DNA of 20,000 nt from IMG/VR virus record IMGVR_UViG_3300031998_000082; one strand, 5' to 3'. How positions within the stretch are numbered: the stretch's first letter is position 1; every line of letters starts with the position of its first letter. The position numbers and the translations under genes were made by a program. The notes beneath the pieces are model-generated. The model made no database searches. It saw only the letters and a list, made by a program, of their open reading frames with translations, and had not been told where the DNA came from. This document shows, one piece after another, positions 342 through 16,061 of this stretch. Source of the DNA: an uncultured virus (IMG/VR IMGVR_UViG_3300031998_000082) (taxonomy: Duplodnaviria > Heunggongvirae > Uroviricota > Caudoviricetes).

Positions 342-1097
342 ATGGCACGATTTAATGCGAGTGAGTCCGCAAATTATGGCGGACAGGGAGGCGGAGGCTT
401 CTTCAGTATTTCAGAACACAAAGGCGTAAAGAGAGTCAGATTTCTTTATAACAACGAGGACGATATTGAGGGCTTCAGTGTTCATGAAGTAGATGTTGGT
501 GATAAGAAGAGGTACGTAAACTGTTTACGTACTTACAGAGACCCGGTTGATATGTGTCCGTTCTGTCGTGAACAGATGAAAACACAGGTCAAGCTTTTAA
601 TTCCTGTCTACAATGTAGATGAGGACCAAGTACAGGTTTGGGACAGAGGCAAGAAGATGTTTGAAAAGATGTCCAGTTTGTGTAGCAGATACGCGAACAA
701 GGATAATCTTGTACAGCATATCTTTGAAGTCGAGAGAAACGGAAAGCCCAAAGACACAAACACGACCTATGAGATTTACGAGGTCGAGAAAGATGATACA
801 CAGCTTGAAGATTTTGAAGATGATATGCCGAAGCTTCTTGGAGGTCTTGTTCTTGATAAGTCAGCTGATGACATGGAGTATTATCTTGAAGAAAAAGAGT
901 TTCCGCCCGATGACGATGAGGAAGAAGAGAGACCGCGCAGACGTTCAAGCAGAGAAGAGACAACTACGCGCAGACGTTCAAGTAAGCGCGATGAGGAAGA
1001 AGATGCGGACGATGATGAGGAAGAAGATGAGAAGCCCACAAGACGTAGTTCCGCACGTTCTGAAAGACGTACACCGTCAAGAAGAGGAGATAAATAA
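342..1097 (+). CDS. Phage single-stranded DNA-binding protein (gp32-like, probably Zn-binding) with a long charged low-complexity tail
   Basis: RBS GAGGAG. Motifs include GGGGFFSI..K..RVRFL, VHEV, YVNCL...CPFC, V.VWDRGK and FEVERNG...TTY, then a D/E/R-rich tail. It lies directly upstream of the polymerase (TAATG coupling). Confidence 0.75.
   Translation: MARFNASESANYGGQGGGGFFSISEHKGVKRVRFLYNNEDDIEGFSVHEVDVGDKKRYVNCLRTYRDPVDMCPFCREQMKTQVKLLIPVYNVDEDQVQVWDRGKKMFEKMSSLCSRYANKDNLVQHIFEVERNGKPKDTNTTYEIYEVEKDDTQLEDFEDDMPKLLGGLVLDKSADDMEYYLEEKEFPPDDDEEEERPRRRSSREETTTRRRSSKRDEEEDADDDEEEDEKPTRRSSARSERRTPSRRGDK
934..982 (+). repeat. 16-bp direct repeat CGCGCAGACGTTCAAG (934-949, 967-982) encoding RRRSS twice
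   Basis: Both copies read directly from the sequence, within the SSB tail. Confidence 0.85.
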
Positions 1098-3412
1098 TGC
1101 CGTTGTTTACGTTGCCTAAGACAAAGACAAATAGAGCTTTAGATAAGTCAATCGCAGGCAAGACAGCTACAGCAAAACAAGTGGTCCCGTCATTAAAGGG
1201 CGGGACCAGTTTAATCGGTAGAATTGAACAGATTAAGCAGATGGTCGAAAAGAATCTTGGAAAGTATCGTGATGAGTATTTATGTATCACAGATAAGGAA
1301 GTGCTTCATGATTACATCACAGAATGTATAGGCAATGGATACTTTTCGCTTGATACTGAGACTGATGGTCTTGACCCGATGCGTAATAAGATTGCGGGAC
1401 CATGTATTTACACATATGGTCAAAAGAGTGCATACATTCCAATCAATCATATTAGCTATATCACACAACAGAAAGCTGTTGGACAGCTTGATGCTGATTT
1501 TGTGCGTGAGGAGTTCAAGCGATTACTGAAGAAAAAGCCAGATATTGACATGTTCAATGCTGATTTTGATATCAGAGTCATGCGACACTTTGGTGTTCCA
1601 GATATCTACTGTACATGGGATGCTTATTTAGGCGCGCGTATTCTTAACGAAAACGAGCCTACAAACAAGCTGAAGCCATTACATCAAAAGTATGTAATGA
1701 ATGGACAGGGTGATGCGTTCACATTTGATGAGCTGTTTAAAGGTATACCGTTTACATTGATACCATACAATATTGGATATCTGTACGCCGCACACGACCC
1801 TATAATTACAACAGAGTTTTCTGATTATCAGAGACAGTATTTGAGACCTGACCATGAGCGTGAAGATATGCGACAGCTTTATTGGGTGTTCAAGAATATT
1901 GAGATGGCTTGTGTTCCTGTTGTAGCAGATATGGAAGATACTGGTGTTTTGATTAATACAGAGTATAGCAAGAGTTTGTCGGAAAAGTATAATGCACTCC
2001 TTGACGAAAAGGTGCAAGCTTTTTACGAGACTTTGAAGCCATATAAAGCTGAGATAGATAAAGCACGAAAGAATGGAGCAAAGCTTGACAATCCAATCAA
2101 TATAGGCAGTTCCGCACAGCTTGCGATATTATTTTACGATATCATGGGTATAGAGCCTGTAAACAAGAAGTCTCCGAGAAGTACAGATGAGGAGACGCTT
2201 ACAAAGATAGATAATGATGTATCAAAAGCAGTATTAGAGCATAGAAGCTTGGCAACACTTGTTTCCACGTTCATAGATAAGCTTCCTGAGTGTGTCAATC
2301 CCGATGATGGAAAGATACATTGTAAGTTCAATCAATATGGGGCAAAGACAGGTAGAATGTCAAGCAGTGAGCCAAATCTTCAGAATATACCAAGTCATAA
2401 TAAAGACATCAGAAAGATGTTTATAGCATCACCCGGATACTTGCTGATGAGTAGCGACTTTTCACAGCAGGAACCTAAATGTCTTGCCGCACTTTGTAAA
2501 GAAGCAGGAGACCCACAGATGTATAACACATTTATGGCAGGTAAGGATTTGTATTCTGAGATTGCTTCCAAAGCTTTTAACAAGCCTTATGATGAGTGCA
2601 GAGAGTTCAATGCAGACGGAAGCAAAAACAAAGAAGGTAAGGAGCGTAGAACGCAGGCAAAGAGCATTCTGTTGGGAGTTTTGTATGGCAGAGGTGAAGC
2701 AAGTATAGCGGAGCAATTAGGCTGTACAGAGGAAAAAGCTAAAGCAATAAAAAGCAGTGTATTCAGAGGATTTCCAGCGATTGAGAAATTTGAGCAAGAT
2801 TCACTTGATATGGCATATGATTTAGGTTATGTCACAACAGTATGTGGAAGAAAGCGTAGATTGCCAGAGCTTCAGCTTGAGGAATATGAGTTTAAATATA
2901 TCAATGGTGTTCCTGTAGATGATGACGTTTTAGACTTCAGCAGTGATTTACCTTTTGATGAGAATGGGAAGCCCGTACAGTTAGAGCAGGAAGTACCCGC
3001 CAAAACGCAGGATTTGCTCAGGAAGCGTCTTAAACGAGCTTGGTTTAAGGATAAGCTTAAAATCAAAAAAGAAGCGCAGGAAAAGGGAATCCTGATAATT
3101 GACAACGGTGGTAAAATCGCAGATGCTACACGACAGGTTGTAAATTCGAGAATACAAGGTAGCGCCGCTGATTTGACAAAGCTTGCCATGATAAAGCTAA
3201 GTAAAAGTGAAAGATTAAAAGAGCTTGGATTCAGATTGCTTATACCCGTACATGATGAGGTCATAGCAGAGTGTCCTGAGGAAAACATCAAAGAATGTTC
3301 CGAGCTGTTGGCAAAAACGATGTCAGAGGCCGCTGAGGAAATTTTGAAGATGCCAATCAAGTGCGATGTCGAGATAACAAAAGAATGGTATGGACAGACA
3401 GTCGAAATCTAA
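1097..3412 (+). CDS. polA: Family A DNA polymerase with a 3'-5' proofreading domain and no 5'-3' exonuclease domain
   Basis: ExoI SLDTETDGL, ExoII FNADFD, ExoIII YAAHD; TGRMSSSEPNLQNIP; motif A SSDFSQQE; motif B RTQAKSILLGVLYG; NSRIQGSAAD; motif C VHDEV. Confidence 0.97.
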   Translation: MPLFTLPKTKTNRALDKSIAGKTATAKQVVPSLKGGTSLIGRIEQIKQMVEKNLGKYRDEYLCITDKEVLHDYITECIGNGYFSLDTETDGLDPMRNKIAGPCIYTYGQKSAYIPINHISYITQQKAVGQLDADFVREEFKRLLKKKPDIDMFNADFDIRVMRHFGVPDIYCTWDAYLGARILNENEPTNKLKPLHQKYVMNGQGDAFTFDELFKGIPFTLIPYNIGYLYAAHDPIITTEFSDYQRQYLRPDHEREDMRQLYWVFKNIEMACVPVVADMEDTGVLINTEYSKSLSEKYNALLDEKVQAFYETLKPYKAEIDKARKNGAKLDNPINIGSSAQLAILFYDIMGIEPVNKKSPRSTDEETLTKIDNDVSKAVLEHRSLATLVSTFIDKLPECVNPDDGKIHCKFNQYGAKTGRMSSSEPNLQNIPSHNKDIRKMFIASPGYLLMSSDFSQQEPKCLAALCKEAGDPQMYNTFMAGKDLYSEIASKAFNKPYDECREFNADGSKNKEGKERRTQAKSILLGVLYGRGEASIAEQLGCTEEKAKAIKSSVFRGFPAIEKFEQDSLDMAYDLGYVTTVCGRKRRLPELQLEEYEFKYINGVPVDDDVLDFSSDLPFDENGKPVQLEQEVPAKTQDLLRKRLKRAWFKDKLKIKKEAQEKGILIIDNGGKIADATRQVVNSRIQGSAADLTKLAMIKLSKSERLKELGFRLLIPVHDEVIAECPEENIKECSELLAKTMSEAAEEILKMPIKCDVEITKEWYGQTVEI

Positions 3413-3427
3413 GAGGAGATAAATTTT

Positions 3428-3784
3428 ATGGCACTATTTGAAGTTAAACCTAAGTTTTATTACGAGCCACATCTTGATATGACTGATAAAAACAAGTGTG
3501 TGGATTTAACTGAGTATTTAGAGCTTGTTAAAGCTATTGATGGAGATAGTAGCTTGACAACAAATGATAAGAACTTTTTTAAGATTCTTGCCACGCGATT
3601 TATCGTGTTTAAGTATGAGAAGTTAGCAGATTTATACGCAAGCACAAAAGACGCTAATATTAAGCGTTGGCTTGAAGCCTTAAAGAGCGTGATAGTAGAT
3701 ACAGATAAAGCTATAGAGTCAGGTTATTTCAAGTATCTTAATGACTATTCAATGTTATTGGAGGATATTGTAGATGAAAAATAA
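3428..3784 (+). CDS. Small glycosyltransferase-associated protein, copy 1 (paralog of 4592-4987)
   Basis: RBS GAGGAG. Aligns by eye with 4592-4987 (ATRFIVFKYEKLADLYA / ATRHIVFNYAKIADFYA; VIVDTDKAIESGYFK / VIIDIDDAIVNGYVK). Overlaps the downstream GT gene by 11 nt. Confidence 0.8.
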   Translation: MALFEVKPKFYYEPHLDMTDKNKCVDLTEYLELVKAIDGDSSLTTNDKNFFKILATRFIVFKYEKLADLYASTKDANIKRWLEALKSVIVDTDKAIESGYFKYLNDYSMLLEDIVDEK

Positions 3785-4592
3785 CTTTGCTTATTTCATA
3801 GCAAGCTATGGTAAGCCTGATAACATTATGACGTTACAACAGCTTAAAGAGCATGATGTAAAATATCCTATCTACATAGTTGTAGGTACTGATGACCCTA
3901 AGCTTGAAGAGTATAAGACTACATACAAAGATAACCTTTTGGTGTTTGATAAAGCTGATTATATCGACAAAATAGATGATATTGGTGTTTATGCTAAAAC
4001 TCATAAAGTGTGTACATATTCGAGATTAGCAGTTCAGGACTTTGCACTTCAGCTTGGTGTGAAATACGTTTGTTATCTTTTTGATGATATACAGTATTTT
4101 CAGATTCGATATGTAAGTGCTGAGAACAAGGTTAAATCAACAAGAAAATTTGACTTTGATAGAATGATGGACATGTATGTTAATCTGTTAAATTCGAGTG
4201 ATGATTTGGTTCTTGTTGGACCACCAAATTCAAGCTTTTATATTGGGGTTAACAGCACTTGTGCGGATAAGTATTCTACAAGATATGGAAATATGTTTAT
4301 CTATGATGTTGAAAGAATGCCAGACGTTTTGAGAACAAGCATACTTGAAGATATGGACATTATATTGCAGAACAACAAAATTGGTAAGATGTCGATATGT
4401 CCATTTGGATTACAAGTATGTTGCCGAGACCCTCACACCACAACAGATTGTTATGGTAATATGAGTAAGTCAGAGTATTACCAGCATCTTGTTCTATTAG
4501 GTCAGAGACCTGTTGCATTGGACAGACCTACAATACCTTATGCAAGTTTTACACCTAAGATAATCAGTCCAGAATACAGGAGGATAGTTTAA
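3774..4592 (+). CDS. Putative GT-A-fold glycosyltransferase (TAGT/GREB1-like), divergent copy 1
   Basis: FAYFIASYGKPD N-terminal strand, SR...A..LG..Y....FDD (degenerate DxD), ILEDMD, C-terminal PKIIS. Clear paralog of 4977-5828. Confidence 0.65.
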   Translation: MKNNFAYFIASYGKPDNIMTLQQLKEHDVKYPIYIVVGTDDPKLEEYKTTYKDNLLVFDKADYIDKIDDIGVYAKTHKVCTYSRLAVQDFALQLGVKYVCYLFDDIQYFQIRYVSAENKVKSTRKFDFDRMMDMYVNLLNSSDDLVLVGPPNSSFYIGVNSTCADKYSTRYGNMFIYDVERMPDVLRTSILEDMDIILQNNKIGKMSICPFGLQVCCRDPHTTTDCYGNMSKSEYYQHLVLLGQRPVALDRPTIPYASFTPKIISPEYRRIV

Positions 4593-4987
4593 TGCCATTG
4601 TTTAAAATCAAAAAAGAAGTTGATACCAAATACACAGCAAAAGTATTACCACCTCAGTATTTACCAAGTGCAATAGCTCCTAAGATGCATGAGCTTTGTG
4701 ATTTAGCGCAGTATAAAAAGCTTATGCAGAATATCAACAAGTCCGATATTCCAGACGAAATTAAAGACTTTCTGAAGCTTGGAGCAACAAGGCATATAGT
4801 GTTTAACTACGCAAAGATAGCAGACTTTTATGCCCATGCAGAACCTGAAGTGCAGAGATTGATGGAAGAATCAGCGTTGGTAATAATTGATATCGATGAT
4901 GCCATTGTGAATGGATATGTAAAGCTGAGTAAAAATATTAAGCAGATTATGGACCAGACAGGAAGAAGGACAAAAGATGAGAGCTGA
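4592..4987 (+). CDS. Small glycosyltransferase-associated protein, copy 2
   Basis: TAATG coupling and RBS GGAGG. Paralog of 3428-3784. Overlaps the downstream GT gene by 11 nt. Confidence 0.82.
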   Translation: MPLFKIKKEVDTKYTAKVLPPQYLPSAIAPKMHELCDLAQYKKLMQNINKSDIPDEIKDFLKLGATRHIVFNYAKIADFYAHAEPEVQRLMEESALVIIDIDDAIVNGYVKLSKNIKQIMDQTGRRTKDES

Positions 4988-5828
4988 TTTTGCCATTTTT
5001 ATACTGACACATGGAAGAGCTGATAATGTGATAACTACAGATACATTAAAGCGATGCGGAAATACAAATAGAATCTATTATATCATCGATAATGAGGATA
5101 AGCAGGCAGATTTATATCGACAGCGATTCGGTGCTGAAAATGTCATTATGTTTGACAAAAAGAAGAAAGCCAAGAGCTGTGATACAATGGATTTAGTTGA
5201 TAATCGAAATATTGTATTGTTTGCACGTAACAGCTGTTTTGAGATAGCTAAGAAGCTTGGCCTGACATATTTTTTAGAGCTTGATGATGATTATACAATC
5301 TTTAGAAGTCGAATGTGGGACGGAGATAAGCTTGCTACAGTCTATTGTACAGATTTAGATTCGGTGATAGATGAGACAATAGATTTCCTTGAAACGAGTG
5401 GAGCAACAACAGTGGCATTTGGACAGACAGGAGATTTTATTGGTGGTAGTGGTTGTAAGCTGTTTAAGGAAAAGATTCTGAGAAAAGCAATGAATAGCTT
5501 TTTCTGTAAAGTTGACAGACCTTTTGATTTTTATGGTAGAATCAATGAAGATGTCAACGCTTATGTATCATTGGGAAGTAGAGGTAAGCTGTTTTTTACA
5601 ATTTCAGATATGACACTAAACCAGCACGACACACAGCAGAACAGCGGTGGTTTAACAGATGCCTACTTACAGATGGGCACATATGTGAAGTCTTTTTACA
5701 CTGTTATGGGAAATCCCTCATGTGTTAAAATATCAGAGATGGGTTGTGGACATAAAAGAATACATCATCTCATAGATTGGGACCATGCAGTGCCAAAAAT
5801 AATAAGCGATAAATTCAAGAAAGGATAA
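4977..5828 (+). CDS. Putative GT-A-fold glycosyltransferase (TET/JBP-associated TAGT/GREB1-like family), copy 2
   Basis: FAIFILTHGRA, FARN, YFLELDDDY (DxD), RKAMNSFF, GRINEDVN (ED motif), QQNSGGL, RIHH, PKIIS. This pattern is recalled for phage nucleic-acid glycosyltransferases. Confidence 0.75.
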   Translation: MRADFAIFILTHGRADNVITTDTLKRCGNTNRIYYIIDNEDKQADLYRQRFGAENVIMFDKKKKAKSCDTMDLVDNRNIVLFARNSCFEIAKKLGLTYFLELDDDYTIFRSRMWDGDKLATVYCTDLDSVIDETIDFLETSGATTVAFGQTGDFIGGSGCKLFKEKILRKAMNSFFCKVDRPFDFYGRINEDVNAYVSLGSRGKLFFTISDMTLNQHDTQQNSGGLTDAYLQMGTYVKSFYTVMGNPSCVKISEMGCGHKRIHHLIDWDHAVPKIISDKFKKG

Positions 5829-5833
5829 TAGCT

Positions 5834-6004
5834 ATGGGAGGAAGAACAAGAAAAGCACCATCAAGAAGGATTCACACAAGAAAGATTGACAGAATGGTTG
5901 CAAAAAACAATATGCGCATTTTAGGCATTTCAGTGCATGATTGCATCAAACATGGAAGATTTTCTGATGCATGGAAAGAGTATTCAAAAGAAGTTAAAGC
6001 GTAA
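5834..6004 (+). CDS. Small basic hypothetical protein (56 aa, MGGRTRKAPSRRIHTRKIDR...), not in the ORF track
   Basis: Manual translation. It fills the gap between the GT and the clamp, has an AAGGA RBS upstream, and its stop abuts the clamp RBS. Confidence 0.7.
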   Translation: MGGRTRKAPSRRIHTRKIDRMVAKNNMRILGISVHDCIKHGRFSDAWKEYSKEVKA

Positions 6005-6016
6005 AGGAGAGACAAC

Positions 6017-7156
6017 ATGGCAGGAAAGAAAAAGACAGAGACAAAGACAGAAGCAGTAAAAGCAAATGTGTTGACGATTTCAGCGGAGACATTCAAGACA
6101 TTGGTAAGCAAAGCTTACAAGGGAGTAGGTAATAACAAGCTTTTACCACTTACACAGTTGATGTGCATCAGAGTAAAGGATGGAGAGCTTACGCTGATTG
6201 TATCAGATGAGACAGGAACCAATTATCTGTATGTGAGACAGAAGAACATTGAAGGAGAGTTTTATGCCACAGTTCTTGCTGACCAATTTGCAAAGCTGAT
6301 AGAGAAACAGACCTGTGAGAAAATCACGATGGAAGCTGATGCTGATAAGCTTAATGTTACAGGTAATGGAAAGTACACTATAGCTTTACAGTATGATGAA
6401 ATGGGTAATTCCATACAGTATCCTGACCCGATTAGTGACTTAGTGATGCCTGAAGCAGGAGCGGGTAATATCAAACTTTCAGTGGTATCAAAGATGCTTA
6501 ATTCTGTAAAGCCTGCGCTTGCTGTTTCGATGGATGCGCCGTATCTTACAGGCTATTATGCAGGAGACATCATTGCCGCGACAAACGGAGATGAGATGAG
6601 CATATACAGTACAGAGCTTATGGAAGAGCCTGTAATACTGTCTCCGACAGTTATAGAGCTGTTATCATTGTCGGCCGATGATAAGTTTTCAGTTGAGCGA
6701 TATGATGAGGGAGTGCTTTTGTTCTATGCTTCAGATATTCAGATTTATACACATGCGATGGAAGGCATTGACGATTATCCTGTAGAAGCACTGAAGCAGT
6801 TTAAAGAAGCAGATATGCCTTACAGTTGTAAGCTGTCAAAGAATGCACTGATGCAGGCGCTTGATAGAATATCATTGTTTATAGGTGCATATGATGACAA
6901 CGCAATCAAGCTGACATTTGATGGTAAAGCTGTCAAGATATCATCACTTGCAAGCACAGGCGTGGAAGACATTACGTATATGTCAGGAAGTAAGGATAAG
7001 TTTGAATGTACTGTTGATTCTGTAGCATTTACAAAGCATGTAAAAGCGCAGTCCACAGATACTGTAGAACTTCAGTTTGGCGATGAGTCAGCAATCAAGC
7101 TTATTGATGGTGATATCGTGCAGATTTTGAGCTTGTTTGAGGAAGATAATGCGTAA
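6017..7156 (+). CDS. dnaN: DNA polymerase sliding clamp (DnaN/beta-clamp-like)
   Basis: 379 aa, acidic, with three repeated beta-clamp-like domains (LPLTQLMCIRVKDGELTL; YLTGYY...ATNG; DYP; LMQALDRISLF; VELQFGDESAIKL). A clamp loader is encoded nearby. Confidence 0.85.
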   Translation: MAGKKKTETKTEAVKANVLTISAETFKTLVSKAYKGVGNNKLLPLTQLMCIRVKDGELTLIVSDETGTNYLYVRQKNIEGEFYATVLADQFAKLIEKQTCEKITMEADADKLNVTGNGKYTIALQYDEMGNSIQYPDPISDLVMPEAGAGNIKLSVVSKMLNSVKPALAVSMDAPYLTGYYAGDIIAATNGDEMSIYSTELMEEPVILSPTVIELLSLSADDKFSVERYDEGVLLFYASDIQIYTHAMEGIDDYPVEALKQFKEADMPYSCKLSKNALMQALDRISLFIGAYDDNAIKLTFDGKAVKISSLASTGVEDITYMSGSKDKFECTVDSVAFTKHVKAQSTDTVELQFGDESAIKLIDGDIVQILSLFEEDNA

Positions 7157-7210: not shown

Positions 7211-7265
7211 AAAATTTAAAAAAAGTGTTGACAAATGGCTAAACGTGTTATATAATGTTCTTGTG
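7211..7265 (+). promoter_or_regulatory. Consensus sigma-A/70 promoter P1 (repeat copy 1)
   Basis: TTGACA 7228-7233, 17-bp spacer containing AAACGTGTT, TATAAT 7251-7256, upstream A/T tracts. Confidence 0.93.
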
Positions 7266-7788: not shown

Positions 7789-7980
7789 ATGACAAAGACA
7801 CAGAAGAAAAGATTGGCACAAGATTTGATAATGGAGCAAATAGCAATTATTGGTTATGGAGATAGATATAAAGAGTTTGTTGAGCAAATAGGAAGTTCTG
7901 AAGAAGCAGATAAAATTTTGATGGAGCAGATGGATAGAGTTGCTAAAATGTTCGGATTCAACAGTGCTTGGTTTGCGTGA
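7789..7980 (+). CDS. Hypothetical small early protein (63 aa)
   Basis: RBS AAGGAGGT; tightly packed with its neighbours. Confidence 0.85.
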   Translation: MTKTQKKRLAQDLIMEQIAIIGYGDRYKEFVEQIGSSEEADKILMEQMDRVAKMFGFNSAWFA

Positions 7981-7993
7981 AAGGAGAGACAAT

Positions 7994-8182
7994 ATGAAAG
8001 CTTTTGGAAAATGGTTAGTTATGGCGACAGTAAATGGTAAGTCAAGAATTGCACATCCGGGTTTCAAGACAAAGAAAGAAGCAGAGATAACGCTTGCATC
8101 AGCAGGATTTAAGAAAGTAGATGAGAATCTGTGGGAAGATAGCTTAGGACAGCAGTTTTACATCGAGAAAAATAAAAAATAA
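7994..8182 (+). CDS. Hypothetical small early protein (62 aa, MKAFGKW...)
   Basis: RBS GAAAGGAG precedes ATG 7994; start revised from the track's 7940. Confidence 0.8.
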   Translation: MKAFGKWLVMATVNGKSRIAHPGFKTKKEAEITLASAGFKKVDENLWEDSLGQQFYIEKNKK

Positions 8183-8261
8183 AATTTTTTCAAAAAAGTT
8201 GTTGACAAATACAAAAACGTGTTGTATAATGTTCTTGTCAGTTGAGATGAGACACTTGAAA
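8181..8261 (+). promoter_or_regulatory. Consensus promoter P2 (repeat copy 2)
   Basis: TTGACA 8202-8207, 17-bp spacer with AAACGTGTT, TATAAT 8225-8230. The leader TTGTCAG.TGAGATGAGACACTTGAAA is shared with P4. Confidence 0.93.
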
Positions 8262-8285
8262 AATTCGTAAGCATCGAAAGGAGAA

Positions 8286-8507
8286 ATGATTATGGTATTA
8301 ACAAACATTCTTTCAGTTATTGTTGGTTGGGAGCAGATTCGCATTGAAGATACAAATGGCAATTTGATTTATGAAGGAGCTTGTGCAAACTTCAGAGCTA
8401 CAACAGACCCCGATGAGCTTTACAAGACCCTTACCCGCACAGTTGAGCGTGTAATCAGTTTTACAGATGACAATGACAATTCATACATCAGCATCACCAT
8501 CGCGTGA
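8286..8507 (+). CDS. Hypothetical small acidic protein (~71-73 aa)
   Basis: RBS GAAAGGAG; first gene after P2. The start may be 8286 or 8292. Confidence 0.8.
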   Translation: MIMVLTNILSVIVGWEQIRIEDTNGNLIYEGACANFRATTDPDELYKTLTRTVERVISFTDDNDNSYISITIA

Positions 8508-8521
8508 AAGGAGGAAAGCTT

Positions 8522-9130
8522 ATGAATAAAGAAATCAGAGATTTTGAAGATGTAAGGCGTTCACTTCTTGACAGCATTGAGACAGCAAAGCTTGAGAAAG
8601 AGCTTTGGTCAAAAGTCAAGGTTCTGAAGAAGAAAGATGGTTCAGATTTTGCTTCAAGAGCAAAGAGTTTCAAGAATGCGAATTATGGGTGTGAGAGATA
8701 TTCAGATGACCACCATCCGGTACTTACTGTGAGTGGTAGAAACAGTCGTGGTGTGAATTGTAGTTATACGATTTGGGCTTACATCAATGTTACTGATTTA
8801 CCGAAAGATGACCCGCGCAGAGAGAAAGCAGATAAACCCTATTACAGTTGTACGATTCCCACTTATCTATACACGCCTGATGAGCTTTTTGAACAGATAA
8901 AGAAGCGTATTAGCCAGCTTGATTATCTGATTGTATCACTTGAAAAACAGCTTGAAATGAGTAAAACACTTTATAATGAGCTTGTTGATGCAGTTAAGAA
9001 GTCGCTGGAATGTATCAAGAATCAATGCAAAGAATTTAGGGAAGATGATAAAAAATACCCGTGTTCTTTAGAGTACAATCTTGGATATGTACTTGAAAAC
9101 AATATACTACAGTGGTTAATTTGGAGATGA
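8522..9130 (+). CDS. Hypothetical protein (202 aa)
   Basis: RBS AAGGAGG before ATG 8522 (MNKEIRD); the C-terminal part looks helical or coiled-coil. Confidence 0.85.
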   Translation: MNKEIRDFEDVRRSLLDSIETAKLEKELWSKVKVLKKKDGSDFASRAKSFKNANYGCERYSDDHHPVLTVSGRNSRGVNCSYTIWAYINVTDLPKDDPRREKADKPYYSCTIPTYLYTPDELFEQIKKRISQLDYLIVSLEKQLEMSKTLYNELVDAVKKSLECIKNQCKEFREDDKKYPCSLEYNLGYVLENNILQWLIWR

Positions 9131-9131
9131 C

Positions 9132-9467
9132 ATGAACAAAAGACCTACGAGATTTTATAGCAACCGTCAAGAAAAGGCGGTTGCTAAAGTTATCAAAGGA
9201 AAGCAGACAGCAAACAGCGGAGCTACAGAGTTTAAAAAGGGCGATGTTACGACAGAAGATTGGCTGATAGAATGCAAGACAGCAACGACAGAAAAAGTAT
9301 CATTCAGCATCAAACGTGATTGGCTTGATAAGAACAAGGAAGAAGCATTCGCAATGAATAAAAGCTATAATGCTTTATGTTTTGACTTTGGTGATAATGG
9401 CAGTCGCTATTACATCATAGATGAAAAGACTTTTAAGGAGGTATTACAATGGACGCAACACAATTAA
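9132..9467 (+). CDS. PD-(D/E)XK nuclease, Holliday-junction-resolvase-like
   Basis: QEKAVAK...NSGA....KGDV....WLIECKT pattern typical of small phage Hjc-like resolvases. Confidence 0.75.
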   Translation: MNKRPTRFYSNRQEKAVAKVIKGKQTANSGATEFKKGDVTTEDWLIECKTATTEKVSFSIKRDWLDKNKEEAFAMNKSYNALCFDFGDNGSRYYIIDEKTFKEVLQWTQHN

Positions 9468-9673
9468 GCATCATTAAGCAGAAACTTGAAGATGGCGAGA
9501 GAGTCACAAGTATGGAAGCTTTTGACTTAGGCATCACAAGACTTTCGGCAATCATTCATGTGTTGAGACATCATCACGGAATGAATATTCTGACCAATAT
9601 GTGTACTACGATAAATCGTTATGGACATGTAACTAATTACGCTGAATACGCACTTGTAGGAAAGGGGAAATGA
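9449..9673 (+). CDS. Winged helix-turn-helix DNA-binding protein
   Basis: L..G..VTSMEAF.LGITRLSAII..LR..G..I.T...V..YA.Y.L pattern; RBS AAGGAGGT. Confidence 0.8.
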   Translation: MDATQLSIIKQKLEDGERVTSMEAFDLGITRLSAIIHVLRHHHGMNILTNMCTTINRYGHVTNYAEYALVGKGK

Positions 9674-9676
9674 TAC

Positions 9677-9880
9677 ATGTACAAAGTTATGAAAGCATGT
9701 TTATTGATTATCAAGATAGTGCTTGTTGTAGGATTTATATTCGGATTGATTTGTTTCTTTTCTGAGACATCTGAAGCGAGTGGACTTACATCACAGATTA
9801 AATTGTGGATTACTGGTATAGTCATCTGTTTAGGGTGTGGATTAGCTTTAGCATTTATCAAGTATGAGGAGGAAAAATGA
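9677..9880 (+). CDS. Small membrane protein (two predicted TM helices)
   Basis: Two hydrophobic runs: LLIIKIVLVVGFIFGLICFF and LWITGIVICLGCGLALAFI. Confidence 0.75.
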   Translation: MYKVMKACLLIIKIVLVVGFIFGLICFFSETSEASGLTSQIKLWITGIVICLGCGLALAFIKYEEEK

Positions 9881-11064
9881 TATCGTTAGCAGTAAAATAT
9901 AGACCTAAGTCATTTGATGACGTAACAGAGCAGGAGAGCACCAAAGTGATTTTGAAGCAACAGTTGGAGAGCAATGAAGTAGAACATGCATATTTATTTT
10001 GTGGTGGAGCTGGTACAGGTAAAACAACATGTGCGCGTATTTTTGCATCAGAGATAAATAAAGGCAAAGGCAATCCTATTGAGATGGATGCCGCGTCAAA
10101 TAGTAGCGTGGAAGATGTAAGAAACATCATTCAGCAAGCAAAGACAAAGAGTCTGGACAGTGAGTATAAAGTGTTTATTATAGATGAGTGCCACGCAATC
10201 AGTTTAATGGGCTGGCAAGCTTTTCTGAAGCTTCTTGAAGAGCCACCTGCTAAGAGCATTTTTATATTCTGTACAACAGACCCACAGAAAATACCCAAGA
10301 CGATTCTTTCAAGGGTGCAGAGATATGACTTTCAGAGAATAAGTCAGCACGGTATTGTATCACGCTTGGAATATATACTTAACTGTGAGATGGCAGATTT
10401 TGATAATTTTTCAGACTTTACATTTACAAAAGATTTTGCAAATAATTGGAAATCAGGAGATGTTGTCAAGTGTGAGAAGAAATCAGATGGCATATTGGTT
10501 GATAGTGTTGCATTGGTAGACAGCATTAAGTTATTGAAACATGGTCATTTCAATTTTAGTATTAAGTATGACTCCGATGCCCTTGAGTATATAGCCAAGA
10601 TAGCGGATGGTGGAATGCGTGATGCAATCACACTAATGGATAAAGCTTTATCATACAGTATGAATCTGACACTTGAAAATGTTGTGAAAGCACTTGGTGT
10701 TACAAACTATGATACTATGTTTCAGTTGACAGATAAGCTGGTGTATGGTGATACTATGGCGATGTGGTCAATCATAGACGATATACACGCAAAGGGCAAA
10801 GATTTAAAGCGATTTATCAAGAGCTATGTGCAGTTTTTACTTGATGTCAACAAATACGCGCTTGGCTGTGATTGGAAGCAGATGTCAATACCAAGACTTG
10901 GTGAGTATGAGAAGAGACTTGATAAGTGGTTAAAAGATAACGACATCTTTACGGATTTGCTGAATGAGATTGTAAAGATTGATAATGATATCAAGTATAG
11001 TTCCGCACCTAAATACGACATAGAAGCAAGATTACTGCTTTGGATAGAGGGAGGCAAAGAATGA
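9877..11064 (+). CDS. dnaX: Clamp loader ATPase, DNA Pol III gamma/tau-like
   Basis: LAVKYRPKSFDDV, HAYLFCG, Walker A GGAGTGKTT, EMDAAS, Walker B IIDECH, LLKLLEEPP-like FLKLLEEPP, TILSRVQ, GGMRDA. Confidence 0.95.
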   Translation: MISLAVKYRPKSFDDVTEQESTKVILKQQLESNEVEHAYLFCGGAGTGKTTCARIFASEINKGKGNPIEMDAASNSSVEDVRNIIQQAKTKSLDSEYKVFIIDECHAISLMGWQAFLKLLEEPPAKSIFIFCTTDPQKIPKTILSRVQRYDFQRISQHGIVSRLEYILNCEMADFDNFSDFTFTKDFANNWKSGDVVKCEKKSDGILVDSVALVDSIKLLKHGHFNFSIKYDSDALEYIAKIADGGMRDAITLMDKALSYSMNLTLENVVKALGVTNYDTMFQLTDKLVYGDTMAMWSIIDDIHAKGKDLKRFIKSYVQFLLDVNKYALGCDWKQMSIPRLGEYEKRLDKWLKDNDIFTDLLNEIVKIDNDIKYSSAPKYDIEARLLLWIEGGKE

Positions 11065-11894
11065 CAGGTCAGAAGAGATTACAAGATATATTTAAGATGC
11101 TTATACACAACAGCGATTTTCCAAGATTTTGCATCTTAACAGGACAGGTAGGAAGTGGTAAAAAGACAATGTGCGATTGGATAGTCGATGAGTTCAGAAA
11201 ATGCAATCCGTCAATCACATCATATAAGCTTCCTGATGTCAAGATAGATACTATACGAGAGATGATAGCTACGAGCTATCGCGCAGTGAATCCAATTATC
11301 TACATAATCGCAGATGCGGATACAATGTCAGTACAAGCTAAAAATTCACTATTGAAGATAACGGAAGAACCACCAAATAACGCTTATTTTGTTATGACGC
11401 TGGAAAGCACGGAAATGACTTTAGAGACAGTTAAGAGTCGAGCATCGATATTTCAGTTAGACCCATATACTTCCGACGAAATTAGAGCATATTCCAAGCG
11501 TTTGGGAGTATCTAAAGCAGATGAGCTTGGCATGATTTGTGATATATGCGATGTTCCGGGAGATGTCGAGCATATGCTGATATATGGAGTTAAGGATTTT
11601 TATGGGTATGTCAATAAGGTCATTGACAACATTGATACAGCTGATGGAGCAAATGTTTTTAAAGCATCTGTCAAGTTAGCTTTACGAGACGATGAAGGAT
11701 ATGATGTAAAACTGTTTTTACGAGCATTTATGGCAGTGTGTGCGGAGCGTATGAAGAAAGAGAATCCGCTTAAATATGCGACAGGTACATCAATCACAAG
11801 TAAGTACATGAGTCAGCTTGGCATTAGAGGTGTATCAAAGTCAATGTTGATTGATGCTTGGATAATCGAAATGCGAAGATATTGGACGAGGTGA
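11061..11894 (+). CDS. holB: Clamp loader delta'-like subunit
   Basis: Degenerate P-loop GQVGSGKKT, KIDTIRE, ADTMSVQAKNSLLKITEEPP, TVKSRA. ATGA overlap with dnaX and RBS GGAGG; start revised to 11061. Confidence 0.88.
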   Translation: MTGQKRLQDIFKMLIHNSDFPRFCILTGQVGSGKKTMCDWIVDEFRKCNPSITSYKLPDVKIDTIREMIATSYRAVNPIIYIIADADTMSVQAKNSLLKITEEPPNNAYFVMTLESTEMTLETVKSRASIFQLDPYTSDEIRAYSKRLGVSKADELGMICDICDVPGDVEHMLIYGVKDFYGYVNKVIDNIDTADGANVFKASVKLALRDDEGYDVKLFLRAFMAVCAERMKKENPLKYATGTSITSKYMSQLGIRGVSKSMLIDAWIIEMRRYWTR

Positions 11895-11899
11895 TGCAT

Positions 11900-12829
11900 A
11901 TGACACTTGCAGAGCTGAAAGCTGAAATGATGTCAGGTAGAATGCGTCAGATATACATTTTTACAGGCACCGAGATTGAAGTTAGAGGAATCTATCTAAA
12001 GCAGATAGCAAAGCTTGGCAAGTTTGAAATCAAATGGATTGATGAAGTTTCAGACATAATACAGTCAAGCAGAAAGAAATCCATGATAGCTTCAAAATCA
12101 TTATATGTTCTGTCTGAATCATCAGAGATTTTGAAAAATGATAAAGCACTTGAAGCAGTGCAGAGATGCATAGGAAAAAATATGCTTGTGTGCATGTTTA
12201 CAACGCTTGATAAGCGCGTTAAACTGTACAAGCAGTATAAAGATATCATCGTAGAATTTGAGACGCTTAAAAGCGAAATCCTGAAGAAATACATACAAAA
12301 GGAAATCGGTCTGTCAGATAAAAACTGTACGAGATTGATGGAGATATGTGAAAACGATTATGGTAGATGTCTTTTGGAGATTGATAAGATAAAGAGATTT
12401 CATATAGTCACAGAGCGATTATACGACCAGTCTTTTATATCATTACTTCAAGATGGAACGATATATCAGCCCGCCAAAGATGTTATCTTTGATTTTGTAG
12501 ATGCTGTAATGCAGAGAGATGCCTATACGGCATTTAAGCTGATGCAGGAAAGCTATGACAGCGGTGAAGCTACGTTGGTGATGATATCGAATCTATACAG
12601 CAACTTTAAAGCGACATTGCAGGTAAAATCGTGCAAAAGTCGAGACATCGCAAAGAGTACAGGATTAAACACTTGGCAGATAAACAACGCTAAAAAACAC
12701 ATAGGCAATTATTCTGTCAAAGAGCTAATCAATGCAATGCAGATTATACGCAATGCAGAGGTTGGTATAAAGTCAGGATTGATTGATGAAGAGGTAGCAG
12801 TACCACAGATTTTAGTAAATATTTTATGA
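11900..12829 (+). CDS. holA: Clamp loader delta-like subunit
   Basis: IYIFTGTE, LDKR.KLYK, LLEIDKI, IFDFVDAV, WQINNAKK, E..IKSG are HolA-like motifs. RBS GAGGTG; start revised to 11900. Confidence 0.85.
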   Translation: MTLAELKAEMMSGRMRQIYIFTGTEIEVRGIYLKQIAKLGKFEIKWIDEVSDIIQSSRKKSMIASKSLYVLSESSEILKNDKALEAVQRCIGKNMLVCMFTTLDKRVKLYKQYKDIIVEFETLKSEILKKYIQKEIGLSDKNCTRLMEICENDYGRCLLEIDKIKRFHIVTERLYDQSFISLLQDGTIYQPAKDVIFDFVDAVMQRDAYTAFKLMQESYDSGEATLVMISNLYSNFKATLQVKSCKSRDIAKSTGLNTWQINNAKKHIGNYSVKELINAMQIIRNAEVGIKSGLIDEEVAVPQILVNIL

Positions 12830-14713: not shown

Positions 14714-14916
14714 TGGTAAGTTATACACACGCAAAGGGCGGATATAGTTTTGTTCCTACAGATGTTGGAAATAAGATAGGTAGAATAAGGTCAAAATACT
14801 TACCTAATCATCCGATGTACAAAGAAAATTATCAATTCTGTGTTCCTACAGCATGGATTAAAAATGGCTGGGTTACAGAAAAATCACGGGAGGAAATCTA
14901 TGGGAAAAAAGCTTGA
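14713..14916 (+). CDS. Hypothetical protein (67 aa)
   Basis: TGATG coupling and RBS GGAGG. Confidence 0.75.
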   Translation: MVSYTHAKGGYSFVPTDVGNKIGRIRSKYLPNHPMYKENYQFCVPTAWIKNGWVTEKSREEIYGKKA

Positions 14917-15949
14917 TGAGCTTATAAAGAGTATTAACAAAGAGCAAAAAGAAGAAATCATGACCAAGGGACTCACTAATTATGAGCAGTTTAAGCGCAT
15001 TCCGTTTACGAGTCCAAGAATGAATTATTGCACATATGGTGGTATACCTGAAGGCAGACTTATTGAGTTTTACGGCGAAGAAAGCGGAGGCAAGACTACA
15101 TCAGCTTTGGACATTGTAGCAAACTTTCAGAACATGTATCCTGACAAAGATGTGCTGTGGGTAGATTCTGAGAACACATTTGATGTAGAGTGGGCAACAA
15201 AGCTTGGTGTTGATGTAGACCGATTGTATATCATACAGCCAAAGTCACAGTCAGCTGAGGAGATATTTCAGATAGTGCTTGCTATGATAGAGAGCGGAGA
15301 GGTAGGATTAGCTGTTATAGACAGCTTGGCCGCTTTGATGTCAAAGCAGGAAATCGAGAAGGAAATCGGAGATGCTACATATGCAGGTATCGCAGGACCG
15401 CTTACGAAATTCAGCAAGAAAGCAGAAGTGGCTTGTCATAAGTATCACTGTACGCTTATTGGAATCAATCAGGAGCGAGAAGATTTAAAGAGTCAGTGGG
15501 GTGGATTAAAGACTCCGGGTGGAAAGTGCTGGAAATTCATGTGTACTATGCGCCTGCACTTCAGCAAAGGCCAGTACATAGACGATAAAGGCAATCAGCT
15601 TACAAGAGGAGCAGAGAATCCATATGGAAATATCGTGCAGATGAGCATCACTAAGACAAAATCATGTCCACCGTCACGCAGAACAGGCTTCTATACGCTG
15701 ACTTACTCTGACGGAATCGATTACGTGCATGACCTCATAGATGTAGCGATAAAATACGGTATTGTCGAGAAGTCGGGAGCATGGTATAAGATTGTTGATA
15801 TCGAGAGTGGTGAAGTTATTAATGACAGTTTGCAGGGCATGAGCAAGGTAAAAGATGCTTTGAGCTGTGATGATAACTTGCTGAAGTATGTGGAAGAGCT
15901 TGTAGACCATGCAATGGATATTTCACTTGACAATGCAAGCATAAGTTGA
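14900..15949 (+). CDS. recA: RecA-family recombinase
   Basis: GGIPEGRLIEFYGEESGGKTT (Walker A), WVDSEN, VIDSLAAL (Walker B), INQERE, TPGG, IVEKSGAWY. RBS GGAGG; start revised to 14900. Confidence 0.95.
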   Translation: MGKKLDELIKSINKEQKEEIMTKGLTNYEQFKRIPFTSPRMNYCTYGGIPEGRLIEFYGEESGGKTTSALDIVANFQNMYPDKDVLWVDSENTFDVEWATKLGVDVDRLYIIQPKSQSAEEIFQIVLAMIESGEVGLAVIDSLAALMSKQEIEKEIGDATYAGIAGPLTKFSKKAEVACHKYHCTLIGINQEREDLKSQWGGLKTPGGKCWKFMCTMRLHFSKGQYIDDKGNQLTRGAENPYGNIVQMSITKTKSCPPSRRTGFYTLTYSDGIDYVHDLIDVAIKYGIVEKSGAWYKIVDIESGEVINDSLQGMSKVKDALSCDDNLLKYVEELVDHAMDISLDNASIS

Positions 15950-15955
15950 TATACT
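15927..15955 (+). promoter_or_regulatory. Sigma-A/70 promoter overlapping the recA 3' end
   Basis: TTGACA 15927-15932, 17-bp spacer, TATACT 15950-15955. Confidence 0.7.
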
Positions 15956-15961
15956 GTTAAT

Positions 15962-16061
15962 ACGTCAACAGACATTTTTACTTCATAGTGTAGCCCCATA
16001 CACATTTTTATCTTTACCCGGGAGAGGAAGTCGTTAGAAACAACGACTTCCTCTCTTTTTT
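15962..16061 (+). ncRNA. Candidate ~100-nt small RNA
   Basis: Bounded by the promoter at 15927-15955 and the terminator at 16022-16061. There is no ATG-initiated ORF or RBS. It contains a GTGTA-GCCCCA-TACAC hairpin and two ACATTTTTA repeats. Confidence 0.5.
16022..16061 (+). terminator. Intrinsic terminator
   Basis: Perfect 14-bp stem GAGAGGAAGTCGTT / AACGACTTCCTCTC with loop AGAAAC, followed by T6. Confidence 0.95.

Follow-up and report, generated by a model that had tools for sequence, protein, structure and literature searches.

The element described here is a candidate DNA-glycosylation cassette at positions 3,428 to 5,828 of a viral DNA window of 20,000 nucleotides (the whole stretch that was analysed; IMG/VR record IMGVR_UViG_3300031998_000082), which constitutes the last 20 kb of a complete circular phage genome of 64,635 bp with a 78-nt terminal repeat. 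Four coupled genes lie on the plus strand between a family A DNA polymerase gene (PolA, 1097..3412, plus strand, PF00476, product starting M-P-L-F) and a gene for a phage beta-clamp-like protein (6017..7156, plus strand, PF00712 at E 1e-4, just under the cut-off): A1 (3428..3784, 118 amino acids (aa), starting MALF), B1 (3774..4592, 272 aa), A2 (4592..4987, 131 aa, starting MPLF) and B2 (4977..5828, 283 aa). B1 and B2 are an accessory and a core member, respectively, of the TAGT family of GT-A glycosyltransferases (GTs), and A1 and A2 are a diverged and a core version of a small TAGT-partner, or putative adaptor, domain. A1 does not cover the first ~22 positions of the family profile; the assignment of A2 draws on phrog_620, a helical model and a predicted complex with B2. 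Each A gene overlaps the following B gene by 11 nt, and a TAATG is common to the end of B1 and the start of A2. The A1-B1-A2-B2 order, motifs and overlaps had been described in an earlier sequence-only reading and were borne out by inspection of open reading frames (ORFs), alignments and motifs. A contig from a separate study (run X6) covers the four-gene stretch unbroken, and the arrangement is therefore no assembly artefact. No above-chance promoter was found within the cassette.

Judging from their profile matches, B1 and B2 are TAGT-family GT-A enzymes, scoring 50.6 and 132.5 bits, respectively, against PF20691, the Pfam entry of the family (curated cut-off 27.5 bits). B2 also matches phrog_842 (E 9e-67), and its model adopts a GT-A fold (mean predicted local distance difference test, pLDDT, 90.8) that superimposes on TAGT models in BFVD at TM 0.85-0.89; the fold of B1 is assigned from the PF20691 profile, the B1/B2 alignment and the ESM Atlas, where it falls into TAGT clusters (0.99). 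A sequence search of the PDB with B2 returned designed barrels only, and no T-even record matches B2 at E 1e-5. B2 carries R84, LDDDY at 102 (D103-D105), NEDVN at 190 (E191-D192), SGG at 223 and RIHH at 261, and hence the full R...DDD...ED motif reported for the active site of proven phage DNA GTs (Pyle et al. preprint). B1 keeps R84, DD and ED (LFDDI at 102, LEDMD at 191) and lacks both SGG and RIHH; in all 7 members of its clade a Phe replaces the first Asp of the motif and the RxHH tail is absent. Both the family identity and the contrast between B2 hallmarks and altered B1 motifs thus agree with what had been proposed from the letters of the sequence.

The A proteins belong to an unnamed family of ~110 residues, with 1,395 representatives at 50% clustering. 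A2 aligns to positions 157-215 of the 217 of phrog_620, and is the counterpart of the C-terminal domain of ParB-fused relatives, a relationship that the earlier reading had missed. Among 132 non-redundant A domains, 70 form the C-terminal part of a ParB-like protein and 62 stand alone. Six of the seven ParB-like N-terminal domains tested match PF02195 (the ParB N-terminal nucleotide-binding domain) at E 0.01, three of them above the cut-off, and this domain is absent from the whole genome studied here. Stand-alone A genes adjoin a polA or clamp gene in 45 of 62 cases and ParB-fused ones in none of 70; the fused genes lie directly before terminase genes in the records and loci inspected. A TAGT gene was found in all 80 viral loci picked by A, and an A gene in 77 of the 79 picked by B2, both misses beginning at a contig end. 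Overall, the A domain goes together with this TAGT clade in 125 of 127 loci. In 28/28 phage records that match A, a B2-like gene follows directly behind it, and the hosts of A+TAGT range from Lactobacillus and E. coli to Nocardia, Vibrio and Haloarcula. No A relative occurs in the plasmid collection. Searches with the A fold gave a best Z of 4.0 at a root mean square deviation of 5 (VIA) and two models of its own family (BFVD), while sequence searches yielded helical noise in the PDB and no usable match in the ESM Atlas; they prove neither a new fold nor its absence.

Models of the A2-B2 complex scored 0.85, 0.83 and 0.85, and the best control 0.00; the mark used for such scores is reached by 116 of 157 solved pairs and 2 of 215 mismatched pairs. 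The runs agree in at least 92% of contacts, with partner pLDDT of at least 83, and place the conserved LVIID..DAI..GY helix of A2 against residues 120-142 and the C-terminal tail of B2, leaving A2 residues 1-12 outside the confident contacts. These models suggest that A2 very probably binds B2, and the proposal that A works with its GT is supported, as a prediction, for this pair.

The interval between polA and the clamp gene behaves as an exchangeable slot (approximate ends 3395..5870). In a survey of 30 polA-picked loci, two of them from the same phage, the content after polA was visible in 25: A/TAGT in 12 (one cut after A), DpdA/Que genes in 7 (two identical), methylases in 3, an ATPase-GNAT protein in 2 and a radical-SAM-like gene in 1. 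The clearest case is locus L205, a strain of the same phage with PolA and clamp each 98% identical, in which an S-adenosylmethionine (SAM) methyltransferase and a C5 DNA methylase replace window positions 3395-5870, homology resuming at a 56-aa ORF. In Streptococcus phage Dp-1, dpd genes occur between polA and dnaN, and the DNA of this phage is reported to carry dPreQ1 at ~1.7% of G (PMC6884629); phiCTP1 has an N6/N4 methylase in the same slot. None of 13 relatives with other slot content encodes a TAGT anywhere.

A terminal Leu-Phe (LF) tag recurs among the proteins of this interval. The N-terminal M-A-L-F of A1 (3428..3439, plus strand) and M-P-L-F of A2 (4592..4603, plus strand, outside the predicted A2-B2 interface) are candidate clamp-binding motifs, and PolA, A1 and A2 are the only proteins with an M-x-LF start among the 105 plus-strand ORFs of the genome. 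With the tag defined as LF within the first 16 residues, and after four truncated or open-ended A proteins were dropped, it was found in 43/52 stand-alone A proteins of the main clade, 25/32 PolA and 19/455 other ORFs. Slot enzymes carry LF at the C-terminus instead (DpdA 6/6, methylases 4/4, ATPase-GNAT 2/2; 12/12 in a list compiled after several tails had been viewed), as against 0/18 soluble-precursor enzymes and transport proteins, 13/377 background proteins and 0/23 TAGTs, although one TAGT (L112) ends in its own QSSLF. The Q-x-x-LF form is present in 8/13 relatives without a phage polA or clamp gene in the locus versus 5/39 with one. LF is reported to fill subsite I of the clamp (bioRxiv 10.64898/2026.05.27.728225), and the T4 alpha-GT to bind its clamp gp45 (PMC13216743). 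It is thus probable, as far as motif and position indicate, that A2 docks B2 on the phage sliding clamp, the presumed docking partner, through its N-terminal LF.

Several further slot occupants merit mention. The ABC-type ATPase-GNAT fusions (phrog_11143; L214:12308-13510, L230:12391-13608) end in LF and are candidates for an undescribed DNA-acylating enzyme. Unannotated ORFs within DpdA cassettes (L208:13118-15099, L208:16775-17308, L213:13577-14281, L213:16252-16776, L220:12147-12692), most of which end in LF, are candidates for decorating 7-deazaguanine on DNA. In L229 a radical-SAM-like gene in two pieces (14832-15993), also ending in LF, is the sole slot occupant.

The best PDB match of the B2 model is TarP (6h4m, E 5.8e-6), COLGALT1 and RmlT being also among the top matches, and these would fit the alternative that the enzymes modify replisome or virion proteins, or else a polymer on the host surface, like the prophage enzyme TarP. 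The same alternative would accommodate the position of the pair next to terminase genes in temperate-type phages, the continued avoidance of restriction sites, and the view of Pyle et al. (preprint), who set aside the ~65% of GT contigs without TET or ThyS because these seemed less probable DNA modifiers. However, TarP is also reported as the top PDB match of proven phage DNA GTs (Pyle et al. preprint), the cassette exchanges with DNA methylases and DpdA and shares the LF tag with them via A, and ParB-A fusions parallel the fusions of phage ParB domains to DNA methylases, which are reported to be frequent. Moreover, B2 relatives remain 42-52% identical even where the envelopes of their hosts are unrelated, and other GT genes, apart from the cassette, lie between terL and portal in this genome. 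Protein or surface targets are in our view quite improbable. Since the slot is exchanged with DNA-acting enzymes and the LF tag is common to them and A, DNA is the likely acceptor of the sugar, as the sequence-only reading had assumed.

In the interpretation that we favor, the four genes would form a swappable cassette glycosylating the phage's own newly made DNA. A2 would bind the TAGT enzyme B2 and tether it to the sliding clamp through its LF tag, A1-B1 would be an accessory pair adding a second sugar, host nucleoside diphosphate (NDP) sugars would serve as donors, and the acceptor would be a group on ordinary DNA, with no priming enzyme. In temperate-type relatives, the adaptor fused to a ParB domain could perform the same tethering job, ParB acting as a self-loading clamp.

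That ordinary DNA likely bears the acceptor is suggested by the two-gene core, which stands alone in unrelated phages and swaps without a priming enzyme. Phages infecting Lactobacillus, E. coli, Nocardia and a haloarchaeon carry just these two genes; the presence of this form in small unrelated phages, together with the clean swap in L205, speaks for a pair that needs only a host NDP-sugar and a DNA group already present. Family and profile searches of the complete genome revealed no TET, ThyS, ParB N-domain, methylase or sugar-nucleotide gene, so that the absence of TET and hydroxymethylase genes noted earlier for the window holds genome-wide. Nor was there a family match among the scanned ORFs for an alpha-GT of GT-B type or for a supply of 5-hydroxymethylcytosine (hmC), although a divergent GT-B could escape the profiles. 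Our best guess for the acceptor, held at slightly below even chance, is an exocyclic amine (N6-dA, N4-dC or N2-dG) at a limited number of sites, because a substituent there is tolerated without breaking pairing and N6/N4 types are found among the slot methylases; a phosphate of the backbone or a base made by the host is also possible. More generally, and more tentatively, a widespread two-protein machine may glycosylate unmodified DNA directly while riding on a fused ParB clamp or the replication clamp, with accessory pairs such as A1-B1 building up a glycan on the first sugar.

Alternatively, clamp-tethered glycosylation could be ordinary O-glycosylation of a base primed by the host or by an unrecognised phage enzyme, possibly A itself. 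Hydroxyl acceptors are reported for characterised TAGTs, ~17% of contigs with a phage dioxygenase are reported to escape the TET profile (PMC13229309), annotation is lacking for many ORFs of the genome, and A shows no variation at R67, Y80 and D100 across 116 pairs. Against this, TET was found in 0/49 and ThyS in 1/49 module-bearing genomes or records (the exception being the 195-kb Vibrio phage Va1; L043 fell outside the search), in a search that recovered the positive control, phage Nigel, at E 4e-8. Also, the L205 swap is limited to the four genes, hosts as different as Lactobacillus, E. coli, Nocardia and a haloarchaeon would all have to possess a primed base, and A is small and helical, with many of its conserved residues inside the predicted interface with B. 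A primed base is therefore considered unlikely.

The relation between the two gene pairs was assessed by alignments, trees and locus comparisons. A1 and A2 share 37% identity over 91 aa (E 6e-16), and B1 and B2 24% over 210 aa (E 2e-13), so that the paralogy underlying the proposed tandem duplication stands. The trees do not favor a local duplication of B2 to B1: B1 has a long branch and falls within a clade of its own (7 rows), separate from the one that contains B2, although the approximately unbiased (AU) test did not reject a joint B1+B2 clade (p 0.087). Similarly, the 11-nt overlap is indeed shared by both pairs, but was rejected as proof of duplication because it is the commonest A-to-TAGT spacing in the family (46/114 pairs). 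Across 127 non-redundant loci, a core TAGT with the RxHH tail is present in 124 and a bare A-B pair in 84. On comparative sequence grounds, the universal core of the system is A2-B2, to which A1-B1 is an accessory pair, old and co-adapted.

The claim of one dedicated partner per GT also holds in part. It is not a family rule, since 21 of the 29 loci with at least two TAGTs have a single A (the other 8 have two A genes), and the B1 orthologue in L013 occurs without A1. In the present lineage dedicated pairing appears to exist: at the predicted contact A112-B137, L-F is found in 75/116 pairs and Y-L in 5/5 A1-B1 pairs, while the partnerless B1 of L013 retains F at position 137. This reciprocal change is suggestive only, as it represents a single evolutionary event.

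Relative to L006 and L010, identity is 76-78% for B2, 66-67% for B1, 57-58% for PolA and 39-40% for the clamp, a pattern suggestive of joint transfer of the whole cassette. In place of A1-B1, other relatives have an additional gene for a P-loop kinase, radical SAM, cytidylyltransferase, CofD-like or UDP-galactopyranose mutase protein, as would fit a conserved first sugar that is decorated in different ways. P-loop kinase-like domains are fused to the N-terminus of the core TAGT in L057 (5446-6867), L078 and L187 (5449-6852), separate kinases of the TAGT-fused type occur in L011 and L046, and genes for a CofD-like transferase and a nucleoside triphosphate (NTP) transferase lie between A and TAGT in L112 (3107-6388) and L116 (2845-6140).

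That B1 extends the product of B2 is conceivable, with a chance slightly under one half. A different arrangement, in which A2-B2 marks DNA and A1-B1 marks another base or site, or B1 has a supporting role without catalysis, would be consistent with the FDD and missing RxHH of the whole B1 clade, with B1 having its own co-adapted partner, with the reversed order of the pairs in L094 (A1-B1 behind A2-B2) and with the reported retention by T4 of two GTs acting in parallel (PMC13216743). On the other hand, loci with a divergent TAGT retain the core TAGT (124/127 loci; the single exception is cut at a contig end), as would be the case for an extender, and B1 keeps R84, DD and ED and has far fewer nonsynonymous than synonymous changes. 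The xDD version of the DxD motif works, besides, in some GT2 enzymes such as SpsA. Such a division of labour is accordingly rated as distinctly unlikely.

Decay can be considered in the same comparison. All four frames are intact and under purifying selection (nonsynonymous, pN, 0.01-0.33 versus synonymous, pS, 0.32-0.90 in five pairwise sets; A1 was compared with L006, L009 and L010), and B1 and B2 are more conserved than PolA relative to L006 or L010. These values largely refute the idea that the cassette, or its A1-B1 half, is a relic without current function, which the replaceable slot and the broken TAGTs of some dairy phages might otherwise suggest and which we regard as highly improbable.

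As a whole, clamp-tethered glycosylation of the phage's own DNA by the cassette is given somewhat better than an even chance, and a number of observations weigh against it. Regarding the tag, the slot-enzyme list was drawn up with some tails already seen, the Q of the canonical Q-phi-x-LF motif is absent in A1 and A2, the tag is missing in 5/6 A1-clade members, and it may in part be a remnant of the F-G linker present in ParB fusions (LF in 13/70 linkers, aromatic-G in 48/70). Regarding the enzymes, TarP glycosylates teichoic acid rather than DNA, B1 may be inactive or act differently because it has neither the leading Asp of DDD nor an RxHH tail, the Y-L swap counts as one evolutionary event, and TAGT is broken or partial in the dairy Lactobacillus phages phiLdb, LL-Ku, Ld17 and Ld25A, though whole in c5 and PMBT4. 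Regarding the acceptor, characterised TAGTs in the literature covered use a hydroxylated base or an existing sugar, neither of which the genome makes, and an unrecognised priming enzyme is possible because many ORFs have no family match and profiles miss divergent enzymes. Finally, GATC and CTAG do not occur in the genome at all, and GATC is avoided in 9/9 TAGT loci tested (observed/expected at most 0.10) and relaxed in 3/6 dpd loci.

From this avoidance it follows that the mark is either sparse or does not shield GATC and CTAG, and the broad protection from restriction envisaged by the sequence-only reading fits badly with it. Frequent slot swapping could keep the avoidance in place. A k-mer comparison by slot content found no word specifically relaxed in TAGT carriers (21 loci of related lineages, a weak test). 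The 6-mer palindromes AGCGCT, CTGCAG, GCATGC, CTCGAG and GTGCAC are also absent from the genome.

Parts of this system have known counterparts. The TAGT family, including the T2/T6 beta-glucosyl-HMC-alpha-glucosyltransferase, TET-linked phage GT-A enzymes (bioRxiv 10.1101/2023.12.21.572611) and the trypanosome JGT, resembles the B proteins in the PF20691 match, GT-A fold and, for B2, the R...DDD...ED motif, and tandem GTs adding successive sugars are known. The present genome differs in having no source of hmC or hydroxymethyluracil and no alpha-GT, a near-obligatory small partner and the FDD of B1; in the T2/T6 gentiobiosyl-hmC pathway an alpha-GT and hmC supply act upstream, and neither was matched here. 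The ParB-dependent phage thymine dioxygenases (PMC13229309) likewise have a ParB-derived partner serving a neighbouring DNA-modifying enzyme with cognate-pair specificity. In that system, however, the partner is reported to activate an oxygenase and to require both nucleotide-binding and C-terminal domains, and no stable complex was trapped, whereas A serves a GT and has lost the nucleotide-binding domain. The T4 alpha-GT/gp45 system (PMC13216743) also ties a DNA GT to a replication clamp, but as described there it involves a GT-B enzyme, direct binding and an hmC acceptor, in contrast to the GT-A enzyme, separate adaptor and beta-type clamp of this locus. The Dp-1-type DpdA and orphan methylase cassettes share the slot and a terminal LF, are mutually exclusive with A/TAGT, and perform base exchange or methylation with the tag on the enzyme itself, as opposed to sugar transfer with the tag on A. 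The pairs of Lactobacillus phages c5 and phi jlb1, of HHTV-2, of Nocardia phage NTR1 and of lambdoid prophages, annotated in RefSeq as 'ParB-like protein + beta-glucosyl-HMC-alpha-glucosyltransferase', have the same A domain directly coupled to the same TAGT clade, but with A fused to ParB, beside terminase genes and as one pair only.

The idea that A corresponds to the C-terminal domain of TET-linked (5mYOX-linked) ParBs gained no support: the A motif is absent from the searched supplements on such ParBs, and A bears no likeness to the ParB-labelled gp1 of Nigel, the gene before its TET, a comparison with one example only. The TAGT family was reportedly defined by Iyer et al. 2013 (NAR), who may also discuss ParB-TAGT pairs. 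A literature search whose coverage did not extend to that article or to the supplements of Pyle et al. returned no paper addressing the function of A+TAGT pairs or of A alone. The enzyme family, the clamp association of a DNA GT and annotated ParB+TAGT pairs are already known; what the locus adds is the methylase swap within the same phage, an LF rule for the whole slot that comes with its own negative set, a prediction of the A2-B2 complex, and a second pair showing co-adaptation.

TAGT is reported as the only GT in 288 of 753 GT-bearing phage genomes, such solitary TAGTs being flagged as unexplained (PMC13216743). The locus offers independent grounds that many of them, including those set aside for want of TET or ThyS, act on DNA, and A would be the missing partner for their reconstitution. 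Cultured phages with an intact core (c5, phi jlb1, HHTV-2, NTR1) are where the base could be revealed, and the LF tag provides a rule by which DNA-acting enzymes of this group of phages can be recognised. There is a fair chance that the chemistry is new. If sugars are indeed attached directly to ordinary DNA, this would be such a case and would amount to a new class of DNA modification, independent of oxygen, in viruses of bacteria and archaea; it would also give phages of anaerobes a new means of resisting restriction and offer a possible DNA-labelling tool.

With respect to the genomic setting, the genome encodes a siphovirus-like structural module, primase, helicase, PolA, the beta-clamp-like protein and a clamp loader (subunits at 9877-12829 by family matches). 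The nearest cultured PolA relative is that of Clostridium phage phiCTP1 (43.5%), with Dp-1 (41%) among the next best. More than half of the words of the stretch were found in each of six runs, all bovine gut metagenomes, from four studies, one of them possibly the source. In the RNA run X17, only 0.14 of the words were found. Its contigs, which lack a silent-stretch control and so carry no claim on expression, include the end of PolA as well as A2, B2 and clamp sequence but no A1-B1, and have other sequence at both edges. Polymerase-clamp loci of the same phage type also appear in metagenome-assembled genome bins of Bacteroidota (L176, L177) and Lachnospiraceae (L182), where binning is possibly wrong.

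The basic 56-aa ORF (5834..6004, plus strand) is kept in L205 and for that reason lies outside the cassette; the runs differ in its 5' end, and look-alikes trail the slot in L205, L207, L220, L232 and L233 irrespective of slot content. A perfect sigma-70 consensus promoter is located at window positions 7228-7256, directly past the clamp gene and before a run of small ORFs. In the terL-portal interval (L001, genome C1), a 504-aa protein with a C-terminal GT2 domain and an N-terminal half without assignment (7828-9342) is followed by a 246-aa ORF with a QDD motif (9448-10188), which was considered as a TAGT and rejected as not TAGT-like; the position of both suggests virion or surface glycosylation, apart from the cassette. 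Four unrelated packaging-proximal proteins of the same locus (2626-3174, 3358-4158, 5297-6457, 10142-11038), one of them with a Zeta_toxin-like P-loop domain, begin with W-I-T-x-x-G-x-H/R-x-P-I, possibly a targeting tag for head-packaged or injected proteins.

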